A stretch of 64,000 bases of DNA from a virus. Made by a program: the position numbers and the translations under genes. Positions 1,033 through 63,827 of the stretch are shown here, piece after piece (position 1 is the stretch's first letter; each line of letters opens with the position of its first letter). The stretch spans positions 27,848-91,847 of the IMG/VR virus record IMGVR_UViG_3300047160_020067; one strand, written 5' to 3'. The notes under the pieces are model-generated. The model was given only the letters and a program-made list of their open reading frames with translations. It was not told where the DNA came from and made no database searches.

Positions 1033-2177
1033 TGCGGTACAACTCCTGCCGCTGCGAGTATCGGATTGAGTTTCATGAGTACATTTCGTGCTTCAGGCAT
1101 AGTGGCTAAACGTGACTTAACTAACGTACGCGCTGCAGGAACAATCACATCAGCGGCATCGCTGGCAACGTCATCTAGTAAGGTCCAAAGTTTTATGGCG
1201 CGAGGATTGCGTTTCTCGGCATTGCTCGGGGCAACAAGCGCAGCACAAGCCGAAAATATCGCAAGGGTCCGGTCAAGGCGCTTTTCTTCGTGGCGAAACT
1301 TAACCTTACCGTCTAGTAGCTCACCGGGATCAGGGAGATCTGTTTTTTCGCGCCAGCCGAAAAATTCTGAGGCTGTGCCAGCCCCCACAAACGCGCTTAC
1401 GAATTCCTCCTCCTCGACTTGTGACAATTCGTGTACGCTGGCGGATGCAAGCGCACGGGTTGCCATTTCCCAAGTACGTGGACTGGGCCATGCGCGCGAT
1501 GCTTCGGGATTGCCAAGTTTTGGCATTGCATGCAGATGGCTTGGACGACGGCGAATATAACTGGTTACGAGACCCTTGGCGATAGCGTGTGGATTATTCC
1601 AACATTTTAGAACACGCTCTTCTTCGTCGCCAGCATCAAATTTGCTGTCTCCATTACTGCCCCCAGTCAGCAGCCAGTCGCTCCAGGAATCAACATCGGG
1701 GTTCTCCCATCGAATATGACCAAAACGATTTGCCAAAGGGGGGGCAAGGTCCCAACCACCAGCAGCCTCATATGTGGCATTCTGAGCGGCAATAAAACGA
1801 ATACCAGATGGTAGCACAAGGTCACCGACAGCCCCGTCAAGTACGACGCGAAGCGTAGCGGCTTGGACTGCTGGAGGGGCGGTGTTCAACTCGTCCAAGA
1901 ATGCGACGCCGCGCTTGGCTTTACGCAAGCGGTCAGCCCAGCTTGGCGCAGCATAACGCATCGTACCATCCTCGTTTGGGATTGGTAGCCCGAGGAAGTC
2001 TGCCGGCTCGCGAAGGCTAGCAATAACCACTTCGATCGAAAGGCCATGATCCTGCGCGAGTTGATAAACCCGCGAGGTTTTTGCAGTACCTGGCTTCCCT
2101 TCGAGAAGAAGTGGTAATCCCCACCGACCATTCAAGCCGGGTGTGAAGATTGCTGCTTTGAGGATCTTATCATGCAT
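1029..2177 (-). CDS. MoxR-like AAA+ ATPase
   Basis: Walker A GKPGTAKT, Walker B AFLDELN, LANRF arginine finger, PSPRTWE motif; adjacent to a VWA partner. Confidence 0.85.
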   Translation of the reverse strand: MHDKILKAAIFTPGLNGRWGLPLLLEGKPGTAKTSRVYQLAQDHGLSIEVVIASLREPADFLGLPIPNEDGTMRYAAPSWADRLRKAKRGVAFLDELNTAPPAVQAATLRVVLDGAVGDLVLPSGIRFIAAQNATYEAAGGWDLAPPLANRFGHIRWENPDVDSWSDWLLTGGSNGDSKFDAGDEEERVLKCWNNPHAIAKGLVTSYIRRRPSHLHAMPKLGNPEASRAWPSPRTWEMATRALASASVHELSQVEEEEFVSAFVGAGTASEFFGWREKTDLPDPGELLDGKVKFRHEEKRLDRTLAIFSACAALVAPSNAEKRNPRAIKLWTLLDDVASDAADVIVPAARTLVKSRLATMPEARNVLMKLNPILAAAGVVPQ

Positions 2178-2195
2178 TACCGTTGCTCCATTCTG

Positions 2196-2948
2196 TTAGA
2201 GTTTCGCGCACGGTCCATGGTTTTCGTGATCATCTTGGCTCGCGCCTCTTGCATGGTTTTCGTTGTCGATGTGGTTCGCGTTCTCGGTCTGGTTTTCGCG
2301 TTTCCCACGGCAAAAGTCTTTGAAAAATGGTGTCCATTGTGCAGCGCCGCGTGACGCTAATACAACGCCAAGCATAGGTACCCCGCCCATATAGCGGTAC
2401 ACTCGAATGATTTCTTTGGTAAAGTCAGTTGCCTCTTGGATTGCCACGACTCGCCCAATGGACACCGTCTGGAAAAATGGTGCAAGCGCTTGCTTCAACC
2501 CGAAGGGGTAGTTGCGAGCGCGTGTCTCCAGCTCCTGAGCGTCGTCTGCGTTGCGCCCATATGAGACGAAGACGGCAAGCACTCCGATCTTTGGCGCCAG
2601 CTTGCGCACGGTCCATAGTGTGTCTGATCCAACGACCTTGCAGAAGTCGAGATTGGCAAAGTCGAAGCGCTCACGTCCGAATGCGTCGGTAACGTTGCCA
2701 AGATAGACGCGCTCGGCGCCGGCTTCGGCCGCCGCGCCAAGGTTTGCTTGCGCGGTTGGTCCGATATCAGCCGCTGTGATTTGTGGGCGCTTCAGCGAAC
2801 GCCGGGCGCAGCTAATTTCCTCAGCGGGCTCGGGGCCAGCAAGCATGAGCACCTTCGGGTGCCGCTTAGTAATCAGCGTGCTGGCGTTGCGGTAGAGGTC
2901 TTCGCGGACCGCCCGCTTCGCCGCGGTGATTTTGGTAAAGGCGCTCAT
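2196..2948 (-). CDS. Putative class I SAM-dependent methyltransferase; C-terminus encoded by TIGR repeats
   Basis: Rossmann-like motif order KVLMLAGP / ITAADI / YLGNV / FDFANLDFC; last ~35 codons are array repeats. Confidence 0.55.
   Translation of the reverse strand: MSAFTKITAAKRAVREDLYRNASTLITKRHPKVLMLAGPEPAEEISCARRSLKRPQITAADIGPTAQANLGAAAEAGAERVYLGNVTDAFGRERFDFANLDFCKVVGSDTLWTVRKLAPKIGVLAVFVSYGRNADDAQELETRARNYPFGLKQALAPFFQTVSIGRVVAIQEATDFTKEIIRVYRYMGGVPMLGVVLASRGAAQWTPFFKDFCRGKRENQTENANHIDNENHARGASQDDHENHGPCAKL
2200..2316 (-). ncRNA. TIGR-type guide array, segment 2 (about 3 units, first edge repeat degenerate)
   Basis: Minus strand: (cttttgccg) tgggaaacg CGAAAACCA gaccgagaa CGCGAACCA catcgacaa CGAAAACCA tgcaagagg CGCGAGCCA agatgatca CGAAAACCA tggaccgtg CGCGAAACT. 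Confidence 0.85.
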
Positions 2949-3096
2949 AGCGCCGCCTCGTTGGTTTTCGCGGTGGTTGTGGCTCGCGCGACTGTGGTGG
3001 TTGGTGTAGCGGTTATGGCTTGCGTATCCCCGGTGGTTTTCGTCATTGTTATGGCTAGCGCCTCTTCGTTGGTTTTCGTCTTTCCCGTGGCTCGCA
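2949..3096 (-). ncRNA. TIGR-type guide array, segment 1 (4 x 36-nt units)
   Basis: Minus strand: TGCGAGCCA cgggaaaga CGAAAACCA acgaagagg CGCTAGCCA taacaatga CGAAAACCA ccggggata CGCAAGCCA taaccgcta CACCAACCA ccacagtcg CGCGAGCCA caaccaccg CGAAAACCA acgaggcgg CGCT; exact 9/9/9/9 periodicity directly downstream of the Nop-domain gene. Confidence 0.9.
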
Positions 3097-3107
3097 TCTT
3101 CATTTCC

Positions 3108-4073
3108 TTATGCCGCGTGCCTGTGACCGAGGTACTGCTCCTGGTACGACTCACGAATCGGAAGCCCTTCGAATGCCCGCCACTTCAGCCAGATGTCCAA
3201 TAAAACCATCTTGACCATGTAGCGAAGCGCCGCGTTGTGCCGATGCCCATCGGACTGACCCCATCCGGCGCTCGCCTTGCGGTTCTTGTAGTTGTCGTAG
3301 AGCCTGCGCCACTCTGTGCGAGTGTCTTCGCCTGTTTCCTCATTGATCTTGCCGCCTGCCTTGAGGAGGCAGGTCCCGAGTACGCCGATGAGTTTCGTGC
3401 GGAGGAAGGCGTTGTAATGTAGCGCTTCACCTGAGGTGGGACGCTCAGCGCGACCGCTATCTACGAGTACAGACGTTGGTGCGACACTGCCTGCATGTGG
3501 GCATTTGATCTTCGCCTGCTTCGTGACGAAGTTGCCCTCGTCATCCTTCGCTTTGACGGCGCGTGCCTTCGGGTGCTCACCGTCTTCCTCGACGACGGTC
3601 CAGCACACCGAGCACCGTTTGCACGGCATCGGCGCGAGCCCAGCAAACCGCCACATCTTGGACGGTGTGGTCTCTCGCGCTATGTCGAACTCGGAGAGTA
3701 TGACGGCGGCGGATGCCACACCCAAGCCTCTATACTTGTCTTTGATATGCTGATTGTAGAACGGAATGGTGTATAGATGCTTCTCCACATCCTCTAGGCA
3801 CGTTTTTTCTAGGTTGCTGAGACTGTCGAGACGACCGTTGAGTGTCGCTTTGTCCTCGGAGCGTAGTTCGATCGTTGTCGCACGCGCCTTCTTACCTCCG
3901 TCTAGTTTTTTGTCCGAACGCCCACTAATCTGCATTCGGAGGAGTTGCACGTCGTAGAACATGCGCGTCTTTGCCTTAAGGGCGAGGCGCGATGGTGAGA
4001 TCGCGTGTTTATCTTGGCTGTGGCTCGCGTTGCTGGGCTGGTTTTCGCTGTTGGTTTGACTGTTCTTGGACAT
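3108..4073 (-). CDS. tasA: TasA-like Nop-domain RNA-guided protein (IS110/Nop56-related) with Cys/His insertion
   Basis: Coiled-coil N-terminus, GLGVASAAVILSEFDIAR..SKMWRFAGL, YNAFLRTKL, GHRHNAALRYMVKMVLLDIW, EGLP..Y.EQYLG; no N-terminal DEDD RuvC; flanked by a dual-repeat 36-nt array. Confidence 0.8.
   Translation of the reverse strand: MSKNSQTNSENQPSNASHSQDKHAISPSRLALKAKTRMFYDVQLLRMQISGRSDKKLDGGKKARATTIELRSEDKATLNGRLDSLSNLEKTCLEDVEKHLYTIPFYNQHIKDKYRGLGVASAAVILSEFDIARETTPSKMWRFAGLAPMPCKRCSVCWTVVEEDGEHPKARAVKAKDDEGNFVTKQAKIKCPHAGSVAPTSVLVDSGRAERPTSGEALHYNAFLRTKLIGVLGTCLLKAGGKINEETGEDTRTEWRRLYDNYKNRKASAGWGQSDGHRHNAALRYMVKMVLLDIWLKWRAFEGLPIRESYQEQYLGHRHAA
4021..4065 (-). repeat. Single TIGR-like unit inside the 5' end of tasA
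   Basis: gaacagtca aaccaacag CGAAAACCA gcccagcaa CGCGAGCCA, same repeats and spacing as the downstream arrays; encodes ENQ..ASH. Confidence 0.65.
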
Positions 4074-4102
4074 TGTTATGATTTCCTTTGCCTTTTTGTT
4101 GG

Positions 4103-4447
4103 TTATGACCCCACCATGACACCGCGGCAGCAGCGTTGTGGAACTTCAATAAAATTCGGACCATTTTGGAGCGTCAACATTTGTTCACCGTCATCCCGGA
4201 TACGAATCGAAACCGCCTCCCACAGACCCGAAATGGCGCGGCCATTCGAATCGAAGCAGTTCTCAACACAGACCATTGCAATAGGTTGCGTATTGCGACG
4301 CTTACGCGTTTTGGGGGTTACTGGCTTGGTCGGTGCGGCTAGCGTAGAATGAATTGCGCGATTAGATACGGGTGTAGGTTCAGAAACCGGCAATGGAACC
4401 TTACGAATTACACCAAGAGGTAGCGTCGTCGTGGTTCGGCGCGTCAT
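4103..4447 (-). CDS. Hypothetical protein
   Basis: Coupled (ATGA) to upstream ORF; same apparent operon as tasA. Confidence 0.55.
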   Translation of the reverse strand: MTRRTTTTLPLGVIRKVPLPVSEPTPVSNRAIHSTLAAPTKPVTPKTRKRRNTQPIAMVCVENCFDSNGRAISGLWEAVSIRIRDDGEQMLTLQNGPNFIEVPQRCCRGVMVGS

Positions 4448-4626
4448 TTGCGCACCACCTTGCGGGTAAAGAGATCAGCCAAACATTCACTTGCCGCCTT
4501 ACCAACTCGGTCAGGATGGACTTTGGTCCGTGCGGTCATGGTTTTCCCGTTCAGCCGCAGTTTGACGTCAACCAGCATATTAGGCTGTGGAATTCTGACG
4601 ATGGTGATGGCGCCGCCGTTCTTCAT
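4444..4626 (-). CDS. Hypothetical protein
   Basis: Tightly packed minus-strand ORF. Confidence 0.5.
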   Translation of the reverse strand: MKNGGAITIVRIPQPNMLVDVKLRLNGKTMTARTKVHPDRVGKAASECLADLFTRKVVRK

Positions 4627-4832: not shown

Positions 4833-4989
4833 GTGTCGTGCCAGGCAGGGGCAATGGTATTTCGAGCATTTACAGTGTGAAATAAGTTACATATGGACCA
4901 AAAATGTCACTACGTAGTGCAAAAATTGTCACCTTTATTTGCTTAGCTTGCGGTACTGGCGTGAAGAAAATTGGCAAGGCAAGAGGGTA

Positions 4990-5805
4990 ATGAATAACCC
5001 TAAAATCTACAAAACCAGCCGCGGTACGCAGTATTTCTGCGAACCGGGTATCGCGCTTATCTCTGCTCCTACCTTTAATTTACGAGAGGTTGACAATTTT
5101 TGCGAAAGCTTTGGTGGCGCCTTTGATAACTACACCGATGACCCGTGCCCTCGCGGTTGTGCGGCTGGTCTGATCAAGTTCGCTGGGCAGGTGTGCTATC
5201 TGTCCCTCGGCGAGAAGCGCACCATGAACGCCGACGCCGCGCGGTACTTCGATAACATCCTCTCAAGCGGGCACGGGTCTGTTCTGGAGCACGCGACATT
5301 CTCGTTTCTACTATGGGGGATTTCGCGTTCGCTCACGCACGAACTGGTTCGCCATCGCACCGGCACCGCGTTCAGTCAGGTTTCGCAGCGCTACGTAAAC
5401 AATTCTGTTCTTCGCTTCGTAGAGCGCCCCGAGTGGCAAACCTGCCCCGATCTCCACGCCGCCTTCGTGAAACGTATTGACGAAGCGGCGTACCTGTATG
5501 AAACGCTCACTTGCACGCTGCTCGCGCGGTTGCCAGAAGGCGGTACGAATAGAGATCGTCGTAAGGCGGTTCAGCAGGCCTCACGCAGTTTGCTTCCAAA
5601 CGAAACGGAAGCCCCAATGGTGTTTTCCGCCAACGTGCGCGCTCTACGCCACATCATTGAGATGCGTGGCAGCAAGCACGCTGAGCCAGAAATTCGCCTG
5701 CTTGCACACCGATTGCTTATGCTGATGAAGAATGTAGAACCGCTGCTTTTTGCTGACTATTCTATCGATAATGGAGATGTTTTGACCAATTGGAGAAAGG
5801 TATGA
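4990..5805 (+). CDS. thyX: FAD-dependent thymidylate synthase ThyX
   Basis: GHGSVLEH and SRSLTHELVRHR...SQVSQRY signature; ATG at 4990 preceded by GAGGG. Confidence 0.95.
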   Translation: MNNPKIYKTSRGTQYFCEPGIALISAPTFNLREVDNFCESFGGAFDNYTDDPCPRGCAAGLIKFAGQVCYLSLGEKRTMNADAARYFDNILSSGHGSVLEHATFSFLLWGISRSLTHELVRHRTGTAFSQVSQRYVNNSVLRFVERPEWQTCPDLHAAFVKRIDEAAYLYETLTCTLLARLPEGGTNRDRRKAVQQASRSLLPNETEAPMVFSANVRALRHIIEMRGSKHAEPEIRLLAHRLLMLMKNVEPLLFADYSIDNGDVLTNWRKV

Positions 5806-7177: not shown

Positions 7178-7819
7178 ATGCCAAACAAGATTACGAAAGA
7201 TGGAACAACGATTACATCGCCGCGTGGTAAATACATCGTATTCGAGGGAATTGATGGGGGTGGGAAAAGCACCCTTACCAGAGCATTGGTGAGCACGCTT
7301 AAAGATTTGAAAATCCCAGCGGTTGTGCTTCCATTCCCATCGCATCAAGGGGCGGTCGGAAAACTAATTCGTGATATATTTGCAGGACGCGCAAATGTAA
7401 ATGTCTATGCGATTCAGCATTTGATGGTGGCGGATCAAATTGATCATGAAGAACAAATCGAAGAGCTACTCGATAAGGGAGTCAATGTTATTCTCGACCG
7501 GCATGCTGCAATTTCAGCATTTGTGTATGGTGCGGAAGACCATACCGTTGAGGAGTTATTCGATGTCGTGCAGCCATCACGTTTTATGAAGCCCGATCTA
7601 ACTTTCGTGGTGGACGTACCGCCAGATGTTGCTCTAATGAGGCGTAAGGGTCGTGGGGAAGCCAATCCTTTTTTCGAAAATGACGATGTAGAACGCCTTG
7701 TTAGGCTACGTCAACGATACATGGCGCATGTATTGACGCACGACGAAGCCCTAGCTATCGATGGGACCAAATCTACTATCGCGCAGGTCGAAGAAATCGT
7801 TGCTCGGTTGTTTAGCTAG
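7178..7819 (+). CDS. tmk: Thymidylate kinase
   Basis: YIVFEGIDGGGKST P-loop, VILDRH, PDLTFVVDVPP. Confidence 0.9.
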   Translation: MPNKITKDGTTITSPRGKYIVFEGIDGGGKSTLTRALVSTLKDLKIPAVVLPFPSHQGAVGKLIRDIFAGRANVNVYAIQHLMVADQIDHEEQIEELLDKGVNVILDRHAAISAFVYGAEDHTVEELFDVVQPSRFMKPDLTFVVDVPPDVALMRRKGRGEANPFFENDDVERLVRLRQRYMAHVLTHDEALAIDGTKSTIAQVEEIVARLFS

Positions 7820-62238: not shown

Positions 62239-62862
62239 CTATCCCTTTTCCGCAACTAGAGACGCCGGGATTAGGTTGCGGGTAATTTTGGCGCATTCGT
62301 TGAGGATTCTGGCGGCGGCATTGACGGTGGCATCGGCGGCATAGGTGGCGGCATAGGCGGCATTGGCGGCGGCATAGGCGGCATTGGCGGCTCTGGCGGC
62401 ATAGGCGGCGGCATTGGCGACATTGGCGGCGGCATAGGCGGCATGGGTTGCGGCTCTGGCGGCGTCGGCGGCATTGGCGGCGGCTCTGGCGGCATCAGCG
62501 GTGTTGGCGGCGGCATAAGCGGTTCTGGCGGCATAAGCGGCGGCATAGGCGGCATCACCGGCGGCATAGGCGGCGGCATTGGCGGCTTCCTCTACCTCTT
62601 CCAGAATAGCCTCGTTGCGGCACCACGCCTCTGCGGCCTCAATGGCCTTTAAGGGGCGGCTTTCGCCTTTGGGGACGTGCGGCAGAGCTAGCCGTGCACA
62701 GGCTGCCGCGGCTTGGACCACGAGGCGGCGGTCTATTCCTATTTCTGCGGCTTTACGCAGCATCCAACTGCCGTTGCGGCAGGTTTTCCACGCCGCTGCG
62801 GCGGGTGCCGCAGAAAAGGATTCATAAGTTGCGGCCTTCGTGAATGTTTTTGTTGTTGTCAT
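62239..62862 (-). CDS. Imm5-like domain protein with Ala-rich AA[YND]A repeats, copy 1
   Basis: AAACARLALPHV..ESRPLKAIEAAEAW followed by repeats; start placed at MTTTK. Confidence 0.7.
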   Translation of the reverse strand: MTTTKTFTKAATYESFSAAPAAAAWKTCRNGSWMLRKAAEIGIDRRLVVQAAAACARLALPHVPKGESRPLKAIEAAEAWCRNEAILEEVEEAANAAAYAAGDAAYAAAYAARTAYAAANTADAARAAANAADAARAATHAAYAAANVANAAAYAARAANAAYAAANAAYAATYAADATVNAAARILNECAKITRNLIPASLVAEKG

Positions 62863-63550
62863 ACTTTCATACCCATGCACATTAAGTGCCAACACGCAGA
62901 CTCAATAAGATACGCTGTTTAGTTGCAATGAAAGTTCAGACTTGTTGCAAAGCTTGCCACTGCGTGGCGTAAGTGATTGAACGCAGAGTGCCTAACTTGC
63001 CACGGTGGTGGGGTTATTTTGCTACATTCAGGCGCCGATTCCTTTTTAGCCATTACGTTTCTTCCAACTTGGCGAGAGCTGTATACTTCATGCGCTTAAT
63101 CTCCATTCAGAATCATGTGCTGCGACCAAATCCACAGTGATGAATTTCCTAACAATATTGGCGCATTCGTTGAGGATTCTGACGGCGGCATAGGCGGCGG
63201 CATCGGCGGCATAGGTGGCGGCATCGGCGGCATTGACGGCGGCATAGGCGGCGGCATCGGCGGCATAGGTGGCGGCATCGGCGGCATAGGCGGCGGCATT
63301 GACGGCATTGGCGGCGGCATAGGCGGCATAAGCGGCTCTGGCGGCACAAGCGGCTCTGGCGGCACAAGCGGCGTCGGCGGCGTTGATGGCGGCTTCCTCT
63401 ACCTGTTCTAGAGTAGCCTCGTTGCGGCACCACGCCTCTGCGGCCTCAATGGTCTTTAAGGGGCGGCTTTCGCCTTTGGGGACGTGCGGCAGAGCTAGCC
63501 GTGCACAGGCTGCCGCGGCTTGGACCACGAGGCGGCGGTCTATTCCTATT
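62581..63550. repeat. Direct repeat 62581-62743 / 63388-63550
   Basis: 163 nt with 4 mismatches, offset 807 nt. Confidence 0.9.
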
Positions 63551-63642
63551 GTGGCGGCTTTCCGCAACATCCAATCGCCTCGGTCACACAAATTCCAAGT
63601 GTCATAGGACGATAATGCAGCAAACTCCTCATAGGTCCGCAT
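63088..63642 (-). CDS. Imm5-like domain protein with Ala-rich repeats, copy 2
   Basis: Near-identical core to copy 1; start placed at MRTYEE. Confidence 0.7.
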   Translation of the reverse strand: MRTYEEFAALSSYDTWNLCDRGDWMLRKAATIGIDRRLVVQAAAACARLALPHVPKGESRPLKTIEAAEAWCRNEATLEQVEEAAINAADAACAARAACAARAAYAAYAAANAVNAAAYAADAATYAADAAAYAAVNAADAATYAADAAAYAAVRILNECANIVRKFITVDLVAAHDSEWRLSA

Positions 63643-63827
63643 TGCGTTCAACTTTATCTTAACCGGTCTTAACCGGTTTCTTTGGACGTCCACCCTTCTT
63701 ACCATTCTCACGTGCGGCTTTAGCTTTAGCGTTGCTCTTAACGCTACCGCCGATACATCCAAGTATCGATGCTATTTGAGTCATCGTAGGAGGACGCAAC
63801 ACAAATTCATCAAGTGAATTCTTATGT

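Follow-up and report, generated by a model that had tools for sequence, protein, structure and literature searches.

What does it mean when a guide array shares one reading frame with the genes on both of its sides: a broken fusion gene, a chance alignment, or DNA that serves both as guide precursor and as protein-coding sequence? This question is raised by a locus in IMG/VR virus record IMGVR_UViG_3300047160_020067 (91,847 bp, rated complete by CheckV), of which we analyzed bases 27848-91847, a stretch of 64,000 nucleotides hereafter called the window. On its minus strand, tasA, whose product is a Nop-domain protein associated with TIGR (tandem interspaced guide RNA), is followed by a TIGR array and a methyltransferase open reading frame (ORF). 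TIGR-Tas systems are recently described compact RNA-guided DNA binders (PMC12045711), and this locus bears on how their guides come to be expressed and on the natural role of nuclease-less TasA proteins. Our analysis shows that the single shared frame is inherited in part and due to chance in part, and that the arrays are part of a same-strand gene block rather than a separate non-coding cassette. The DNA of dual-repeat guide arrays can genuinely code twice, in tas, where this had been reported before, and in a second, unnamed phage methyltransferase family. We lean, by a little over even chances, towards reading the locus as a small phage TIGR-TasA system with arrays lying within the gene block, in which guide excision would compete with translation.

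The original prediction had described tasA, the array and the methyltransferase gene as one frame broken by a single TAA, and the translation of 4133-2193 bears this out: from at least 4133 to 2196 on the minus strand (translated interval 2193-4133) the only internal stop is the TAA at 3110-3108. The two genes lie in a common frame because their first bases, 4073 and 2948, are both 2 modulo 3. Between them, the 159 nt from 3107 to 2949 form 53 codons without a stop, matching the translation that had been proposed for the interval between the tasA stop and the methyltransferase ATG. All three array segments keep one codon phase, every block begins at codon position 1, and the translated blocks read AS[HQ] and EN[HQ]; the unit map agrees with the earlier claim that this frame is also used by the segments in the tasA N-terminus and the methyltransferase C-terminus. 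The coordinates of the features are collected in Table 1.

Table 1 Features of the same-strand gene block that holds tasA, the arrays and the methyltransferase gene (window coordinates).
Feature	Position	Strand	Description
Small ORFs	4832-4103	minus	First of the same-strand block
tasA, 321-aa ORF	3108-4073	minus	TIGR-associated Nop-domain protein
Array remnant, tasA codons 4-18	4020-4064	minus	From the unit map
tasA stop TAA	3108-3110	minus	Aligned codon in L081 is CAT (His), where the frame continues into the array
Main TIGR array, between tasA and methyltransferase gene	2943-3095	minus	Four 36-nt units and a truncated edge
GAGG, likely Shine-Dalgarno site of methyltransferase gene	2956-2959	minus	Read from the sequence; putative Shine-Dalgarno role
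Methyltransferase ORF, 250 aa	2196-2948	minus	Class I S-adenosylmethionine (SAM)-methyltransferase fold
Methyltransferase core, residues 1-217	2298-2948	minus	Class I SAM-dependent methyltransferase fold
Second TIGR array, 3' end of methyltransferase ORF	2199-2306	minus	Two complete units and partial ones (unit map)
MoxR-like AAA ATPase gene	1029-2177	minus	Pfam AAA_5 and AAA_3
DUF2201 VWA/metallopeptidase-like gene	1-1032	minus	Pfam DUF2201_N; next after the AAA ATPase gene

Tandem Repeats Finder detected a 36-nt period at 3012-3080, and a column-conservation scan placed 36-nt arrays at about 2184-2325 and 2929-3125. Each dual-repeat unit consists of edge, spacer A, loop and spacer B, with the edge GCGAGCCAC and the loop GAAAACCAN alternating every 18 nt. 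The main array shares the frame of tasA and of the methyltransferase gene; its edges start at 3095, 3059, 3023 and 2987 and loops at 3077, 3041, 3005 (degenerate) and 2969, and the 3'-truncated terminal edge GCTATGAGC (2951-2943) contains the methyltransferase ATG. Seven bases 5' of this ATG (2948-2946), spacer B of the final guide unit contains the GAGG motif (2959-2956). In the second array, loop repeats occur at 2297, 2261 and 2225 and edge repeats at 2279 and 2243, before a truncated edge (2207-2199) that is directly followed by the TAA stop (2198-2196) of the methyltransferase ORF. In the tasA remnant, a degenerate edge (4064-4056), a spacer, the loop GAAAACCAG (4046-4038), a spacer and the edge GCGAGCCAC (4028-4020) are translated as ...ENQ PSN ASH, within the variable N-terminal tail ahead of the ...R.FYD.Q core conserved in homologs; since the 5' edge at 4064 is only degenerate, this segment amounts to at most one guide unit. 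Six complete units, split into segments, make up the repertoire of the whole 91.8-kb genome, in which no further arrays were found. The six guides have no self-target in this genome at ≤2 mismatches in 18 nt, and their three-mismatch matches stay at chance level only. No Rfam match was obtained within 1800-4500. No terminator-like site was found on the sense strand between 4073 and 2196, so the arrays are probably co-transcribed with tasA, the methyltransferase gene and the AAA ATPase gene as an operon transcript, as far as can be read from sequence; the AAA ATPase gene starts 19 nt past the methyltransferase stop and has its own GGAG.

How much of this pattern could arise by composition alone? 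With a 36-nt unit equal to 12 codons, stop-free repeat frames and T-poor arrays, long open frames across arrays are to be expected. The repeats GCGAGCCA and GAAAACCA, which are close to those beside tas in dozens of related loci, hold no stop in two of three frames; in the window, array frames 0, +1 and +2 contain 0, 0 and 5 stops, respectively, at a T content of 0.06. T-poor, A-rich arrays are family-wide (mean T 0.15 in arrays vs 0.22 in tas genes), and in ordinary arrays of distant loci each of the frames has about 0.048 stops per codon. With the spacer letters of this array shuffled among themselves, the tas frame stayed open with P = 0.48, and under coding-strand composition with P = 0.36, which gives a joint chance of about 0.12-0.16 after multiplication by 1/3 for the methyltransferase frame. 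Judged from the window alone, the one-frame coincidence is not beyond chance, a possibility that the original prediction had kept in view. A 69-codon ORF in frame +1 (2945-3154, minus strand) spans the whole intergenic array, and its TGA stop shares bases with the methyltransferase ATG (ATGA); this ORF is the second open array frame and has no sign of being a gene.

Relatives speak in the same direction where arrays lie outside ORFs. Among about 30 close relatives with DNA, such arrays occur in all three phases relative to tas (13/7/13 downstream, 10/13/9 upstream), and a conserved one-frame design is therefore not supported. These phases, the openness of the tas frame under shuffling and the equally open frame +1 are what an explanation by pure coincidence would predict, namely that the arrays are ordinary non-coding cassettes and that ORF ends drift into their stop-poor, T-poor repeats, gaining neutral tails without any coupling. 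We nevertheless consider this unlikely, since the same phase and position recur in the locus L081, where the array is certainly within an ORF, since about 1,490 array codons between conserved halves of methyltransferase homologs are free of stops, and since, if the block is one transcript, edge-repeat cuts cannot spare the messages.

L081 is the closest Tas locus (52% identical Tas). Its array stands in the same place and codon phase as that of the window, directly after ...LGH.HAA, with the first edge repeat 21 nt past the ...HAA codons there and 15 nt past them in the window. The L081 ORF translates about 2.5 units as a disordered linker behind the Nop domain and then ends in a conserved acidic helix, FDEALVAAEIALLDDE. 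Random phases in homologous loci, which had been named beforehand as the pattern that would speak against a meaningful frame, are largely what is seen for arrays outside ORFs. Among 51 close Tas homologs, 17 end as the TasA of the window does and 34 extend further through a linker to a tail, which in most of them has the acidic helix; an array-coded linker followed by this helix is present in 4-5 of the 51, and array-bearing relatives include L081, P0041, P0043 and P0049. A quick tree requires at least seven changes between the C-terminal states. The phase between tasA and its array is best read as inherited from an L081-type layout, and the one-frame pattern as a whole is mostly composition plus ancestry.

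Two features of these relatives deserve mention in their own right. About two thirds of the close TasA homologs (P0006-P0049; L081 5021-5068) carry a linker and a short acidic amphipathic helix, e.g., ..PEV.AEL..L, which is missing from the TasA of the window and may be a partner-binding peptide. In L084 (822-1760) and L086 (1458-2320), both close relatives, arrays of 24-25 units lie directly upstream of tas and enter its frame, giving N-terminal extensions with a periodic ..RA.. or ..REP..RNP.. reading; extensions of this kind have been taken into deposited proteins by gene callers, e.g., in P0043 and P0049.

The second body of evidence comes from the methyltransferase. An index-free HMMER search of 1.84 billion representatives recovered 53 remote homologs, which match residues about 5-211 only, and ten of the 53 homolog clusters contain in-frame TIGR arrays in surface loops or tails. 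Their inserts have an exact 12-residue period, and the commonest reading, ETT...ER[AV]..., corresponds to the loop and edge repeats in another frame; one insert of P0131 changes between this reading and a DN[H]/AS[Q] one, and P0133 holds arrays in two different loops and in the tail. In tblastn searches the inserts match genuine arrays beside tas genes, on the sense strand, down to E 8e-13. Across the ten clusters, about 1,490 array-coded codons contain no stop, and conserved halves of the domain enclose them. A surface loop of an otherwise intact enzyme can hold as many as about 200 array-coded residues, and in the model of P0107 both halves fold (predicted local distance difference test (pLDDT) 80-94) around a disordered insert of 106 residues. 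The period, the matches to arrays beside tas and the open codons between conserved halves together establish that translated guide arrays are real in the methyltransferase family, and the last point shows that selection keeps such frames open in these families. The count is subject to some ascertainment bias, as only intact ORFs are found as single matches, and the array-bearing clade is only 23-36% identical to the enzyme of the window. The suggestion in the original prediction that arrays are tolerated inside mRNAs and ORFs is upheld by these ten clusters together with the 4-5 Tas homologs that have array-coded linkers. In the literature consulted, we found no report of arrays inside a methyltransferase family, or inside any second gene family besides tas.

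Ordinary protein repeats were considered as the identity of the inserts and rejected, given the exact 12-residue period, the tripeptides that equal three-frame translations of edge and loop, the frame switch in P0131 and the tblastn matches to genuine arrays. For annotation this carries a warning: low-complexity tails or loops that are rich in E/T/R/A or A/S/H/N/Q and have a 12-residue period can be guide arrays, and surveys that mask coding sequence will overlook them.

The name methyltransferase is justified at the fold level by a confident model and by fold matches. The AlphaFold2 (AF2) model of the 250-aa protein, built on its homologs, reached a pLDDT of 86 and a predicted TM-score of 0.82; Foldseek matched it to many solved class I methyltransferases (E about 1e-7), and VIA-align, whose list was flat with Z 12-14 over about 150-160 residues, scored 1wxw at Z 14.0 and the rRNA methyltransferase 3c0k at Z 13.4. 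The protein has no match in Pfam, PHROG, NCBIfam or the PDB sequences, and scans of IMG/VR and of GTDB genomes, as well as a tblastn search of GenBank phages, found no homologs. As candidate SAM-binding positions, G38, E44, D61 and D101 do not vary among 26 homologs and C103 hardly varies, all at strand ends where such residues are expected, and Pfam methyltransferase models match three of the 26, weakly (E 0.001). Residues 218-250 (2297-2199), 33 aa in all, are array-coded and predicted to be disordered (pLDDT below 50), and the onset of disorder coincides exactly with the loop repeat at 2297; this tail is unmatched in any of the homologs. Most homologs (P0106, P0108, P0110, P0123 and others) possess an extra C-terminal module of about 50 residues (..DLR...L......AAWKA..TR), which the enzyme of the window lacks, with the array-coded tail in its place.

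The original prediction had offered a former fusion of Tas, linker and methyltransferase as one of two explanations for the shared frame. Such a tethering of the Nop guide binder to the methyltransferase, whether past or conditional through read-through of the TAA, would fit the exact in-frame layout, the 53 stop-free codons, the lack of a terminator and the Tas of relatives, whose frame crosses an array-coded linker to reach another C-terminal element. That element, however, is the short acidic helix and not a methyltransferase. Searches found no fused Tas-methyltransferase ORF, no methyltransferase homolog longer than 463 aa among the HMMER representatives, and no Tas homolog of 563-2000 aa, the last being weak evidence. 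Homologs of the methyltransferase conserve its N-terminus (M-x-x-F...AKR.VR..LY) as their own start, and it aligns with the beginning of free-standing proteins, and TAA is the least leaky stop codon in bacteria. We regard a fusion as very improbable.

TasA is a nuclease-less, dual-repeat-type protein ending in ...YQEQYLGHRHAA directly before the TAA. In phmmer searches it matches the solved TasR (9mty, E 1.5e-6) and TasH (21kl, E 2.1e-5); it further matches PHROG 4285 (E 2.6e-27) and the NCBIfam model NF052498 TIGR_Tas_endo (E 4.4e-26, 92 bits, below the equivalog cut-off of 100), and has 104 homologs. A single-protein scan of IMG/VR found no Tas, but alignment-based scans did. Dual-repeat Tas proteins are described as cutting their own precursors in the edge repeats via a C-terminal Y/H loop (PMC12045711; 10.64898/2026.09.09.750476). 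The C-terminal ...YQEQYLGH of the TasA in the window aligns to ...YVQEKLGH of TasH, with Y310 invariant and L315 and G316 nearly invariant in 29 homologs, so that the Y...LGH motif is kept as in the self-processing dual-repeat proteins. The Nop domain also contains a Cys/His-rich insertion (3488-3633), of which 29 close homologs all keep C154, C157, H167 and C191 and which therefore marks the whole subclade rather than this locus or the methyltransferase.

In the reading that we favor, the array begins in codon phase directly after the Nop domain, as an inherited layout in which TasA is here ended by the TAA. The methyltransferase ORF begins in the truncated last edge and runs through the downstream array to the first stop, thereby adding the 33-residue disordered tail. 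The same DNA thus acts, in this reading, as guide precursor and as dispensable protein tail and is not a broken fusion gene. TasA would excise 36-nt guides by edge-repeat cuts, and each excision from the shared transcript would also damage a message: a cut at 4028 would detach the beginning of tasA from the rest of it, removal of the last unit would take away the methyltransferase ribosome-binding site, and cuts at 2279, 2243 or 2207 would take away the methyltransferase stop codon. Guide production and translation would consequently compete, with negative feedback as the outcome. Autoregulation through guide excision, the other explanation in the original prediction, is plausible, and the locus offers a concrete model for the coupling of guide maturation to translation.

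Several points weigh against this scenario. The published arrays usually end in a terminator (PMC12045711) and none is seen here, which makes the transcript structure an assumption. The tasA 5' unit, whose 5' edge is only degenerate, may escape processing altogether. The window alone yields no more than the joint chance given above, and the methyltransferase may stand in the same frame by plain chance. Finally, the TasA of the window falls in an unresolved polytomy of the quick tree, which does not settle whether its ancestor was short or read through.

Alternatively, the arrangement may be a selected design in which guides placed within effector genes fix the ratio of guide, TasA and methyltransferase and stop synthesis as TasA accumulates, with the methyltransferase as the effector of the TasA-guide complex. 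An association of the methyltransferase family with TIGR arrays is seen in at least two independent forms, with flanking arrays here and internal ones in a distant clade; the likely methyltransferase Shine-Dalgarno site lies inside the last guide unit and the ATG inside the terminal edge; and Xu et al. (10.64898/2026.09.09.750476) bring up, for the tas gene, a coupling of maturation to translation. Set against these points, this methyltransferase domain was not found in any of 135 other Tas loci taken with flanks of 4-5 kb, and the guide units of the window sit at gene ends only, where constraint is weak. We judge this design improbable.

The same observations bear on whether TasA and the methyltransferase are functional partners. 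Adjacency in this genome and the second, independent array association of the family count for a partnership, and the enzyme can be flagged as a candidate TasA accessory enzyme; its absence from the 135 other loci counts against it, and neither PMC12045711 nor 10.64898/2026.09.09.750476 mentions a methyltransferase partner. We think a functional partnership unlikely. By analogy, the pair might form a phage RNA-guided methylation module, a prokaryotic-virus counterpart of Nop5 and fibrillarin in which excision of arrays placed on purpose in the frames of the effector genes would set the ratio of TasA, methyltransferase and guide by destroying messages, and this too we think unlikely. The analogy is with archaeal and eukaryotic box C/D ribonucleoproteins (Nop5/Nop56/58 with fibrillarin), where, as here, the gene for a Nop-domain guide-RNA binder has a SAM-dependent methyltransferase for company; it is a resemblance only. 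TasA has no counterpart of the N-terminal domain through which fibrillarin is recruited (PMC12045711), and the methyltransferase of the window matches no named family by sequence, its fold list being flat across class I.

Dual-repeat TIGR arrays were defined by Faure et al. (Science 2025, PMC12045711), and the locus resembles their systems, such as that of Flavonifractor plautii (FpTIGR), in its nuclease-less Nop-domain Tas, its phage host, its 36-nt units with two alternating repeats of ~9-10 nt and spacers of ~8-9 nt, and its truncated last edge. The arrays in the window differ in being tiny (six complete units), segmented and overlapping with two ORF ends. A terminator, a usual rather than strictly defining feature of arrays, is absent, and the truncated edges are present (2951-2943 and 2207-2199). 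The operon partner is a class I methyltransferase instead of the tasParB described for TasA operons.

Arrays inside tas coding sequences have already been reported by Xu et al. (bioRxiv 10.64898/2026.09.09.750476; Bifidobacterium longum BlTasA), who suggest that the maturation of guides and the translation of Tas are linked. Like those intragenic arrays, the guide units of the window lie in a frame-keeping ORF and in disordered protein parts, in this case the methyltransferase tail 218-250 and the N-terminal remnant of tasA. That report concerns mainly stem-loop arrays, with dual-repeat ones occurring 'less frequently', and the tas gene only, whereas the window has dual-repeat units, its TasA keeps the Y/H self-processing loop, and the overlap with stronger support involves a second gene other than tas, from a family that repeatedly has arrays in its loops.

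Divergent from the Tas block lie a ThyX thymidylate synthase gene (4939-5805, plus strand; Pfam Thy1, E 1.5e-42) and a putative thymidylate kinase gene (7178-7819, plus strand), the latter recognized by eye from its P-loop motif; together they look like a nucleotide-metabolism early region. At the other end of the window, the minus strand encodes a pair of paralogous ORFs of 218 and 224 aa (62239-63762) that have a conserved N-terminal half in common, each followed by a long Ala/Tyr-rich tandem repeat (AAYAA[ND]AA-like). These protein repeats account for the 9-54-nt tandem repeats at 62.3-64.0 kb, and a third copy of the paralogs may run off the window end.

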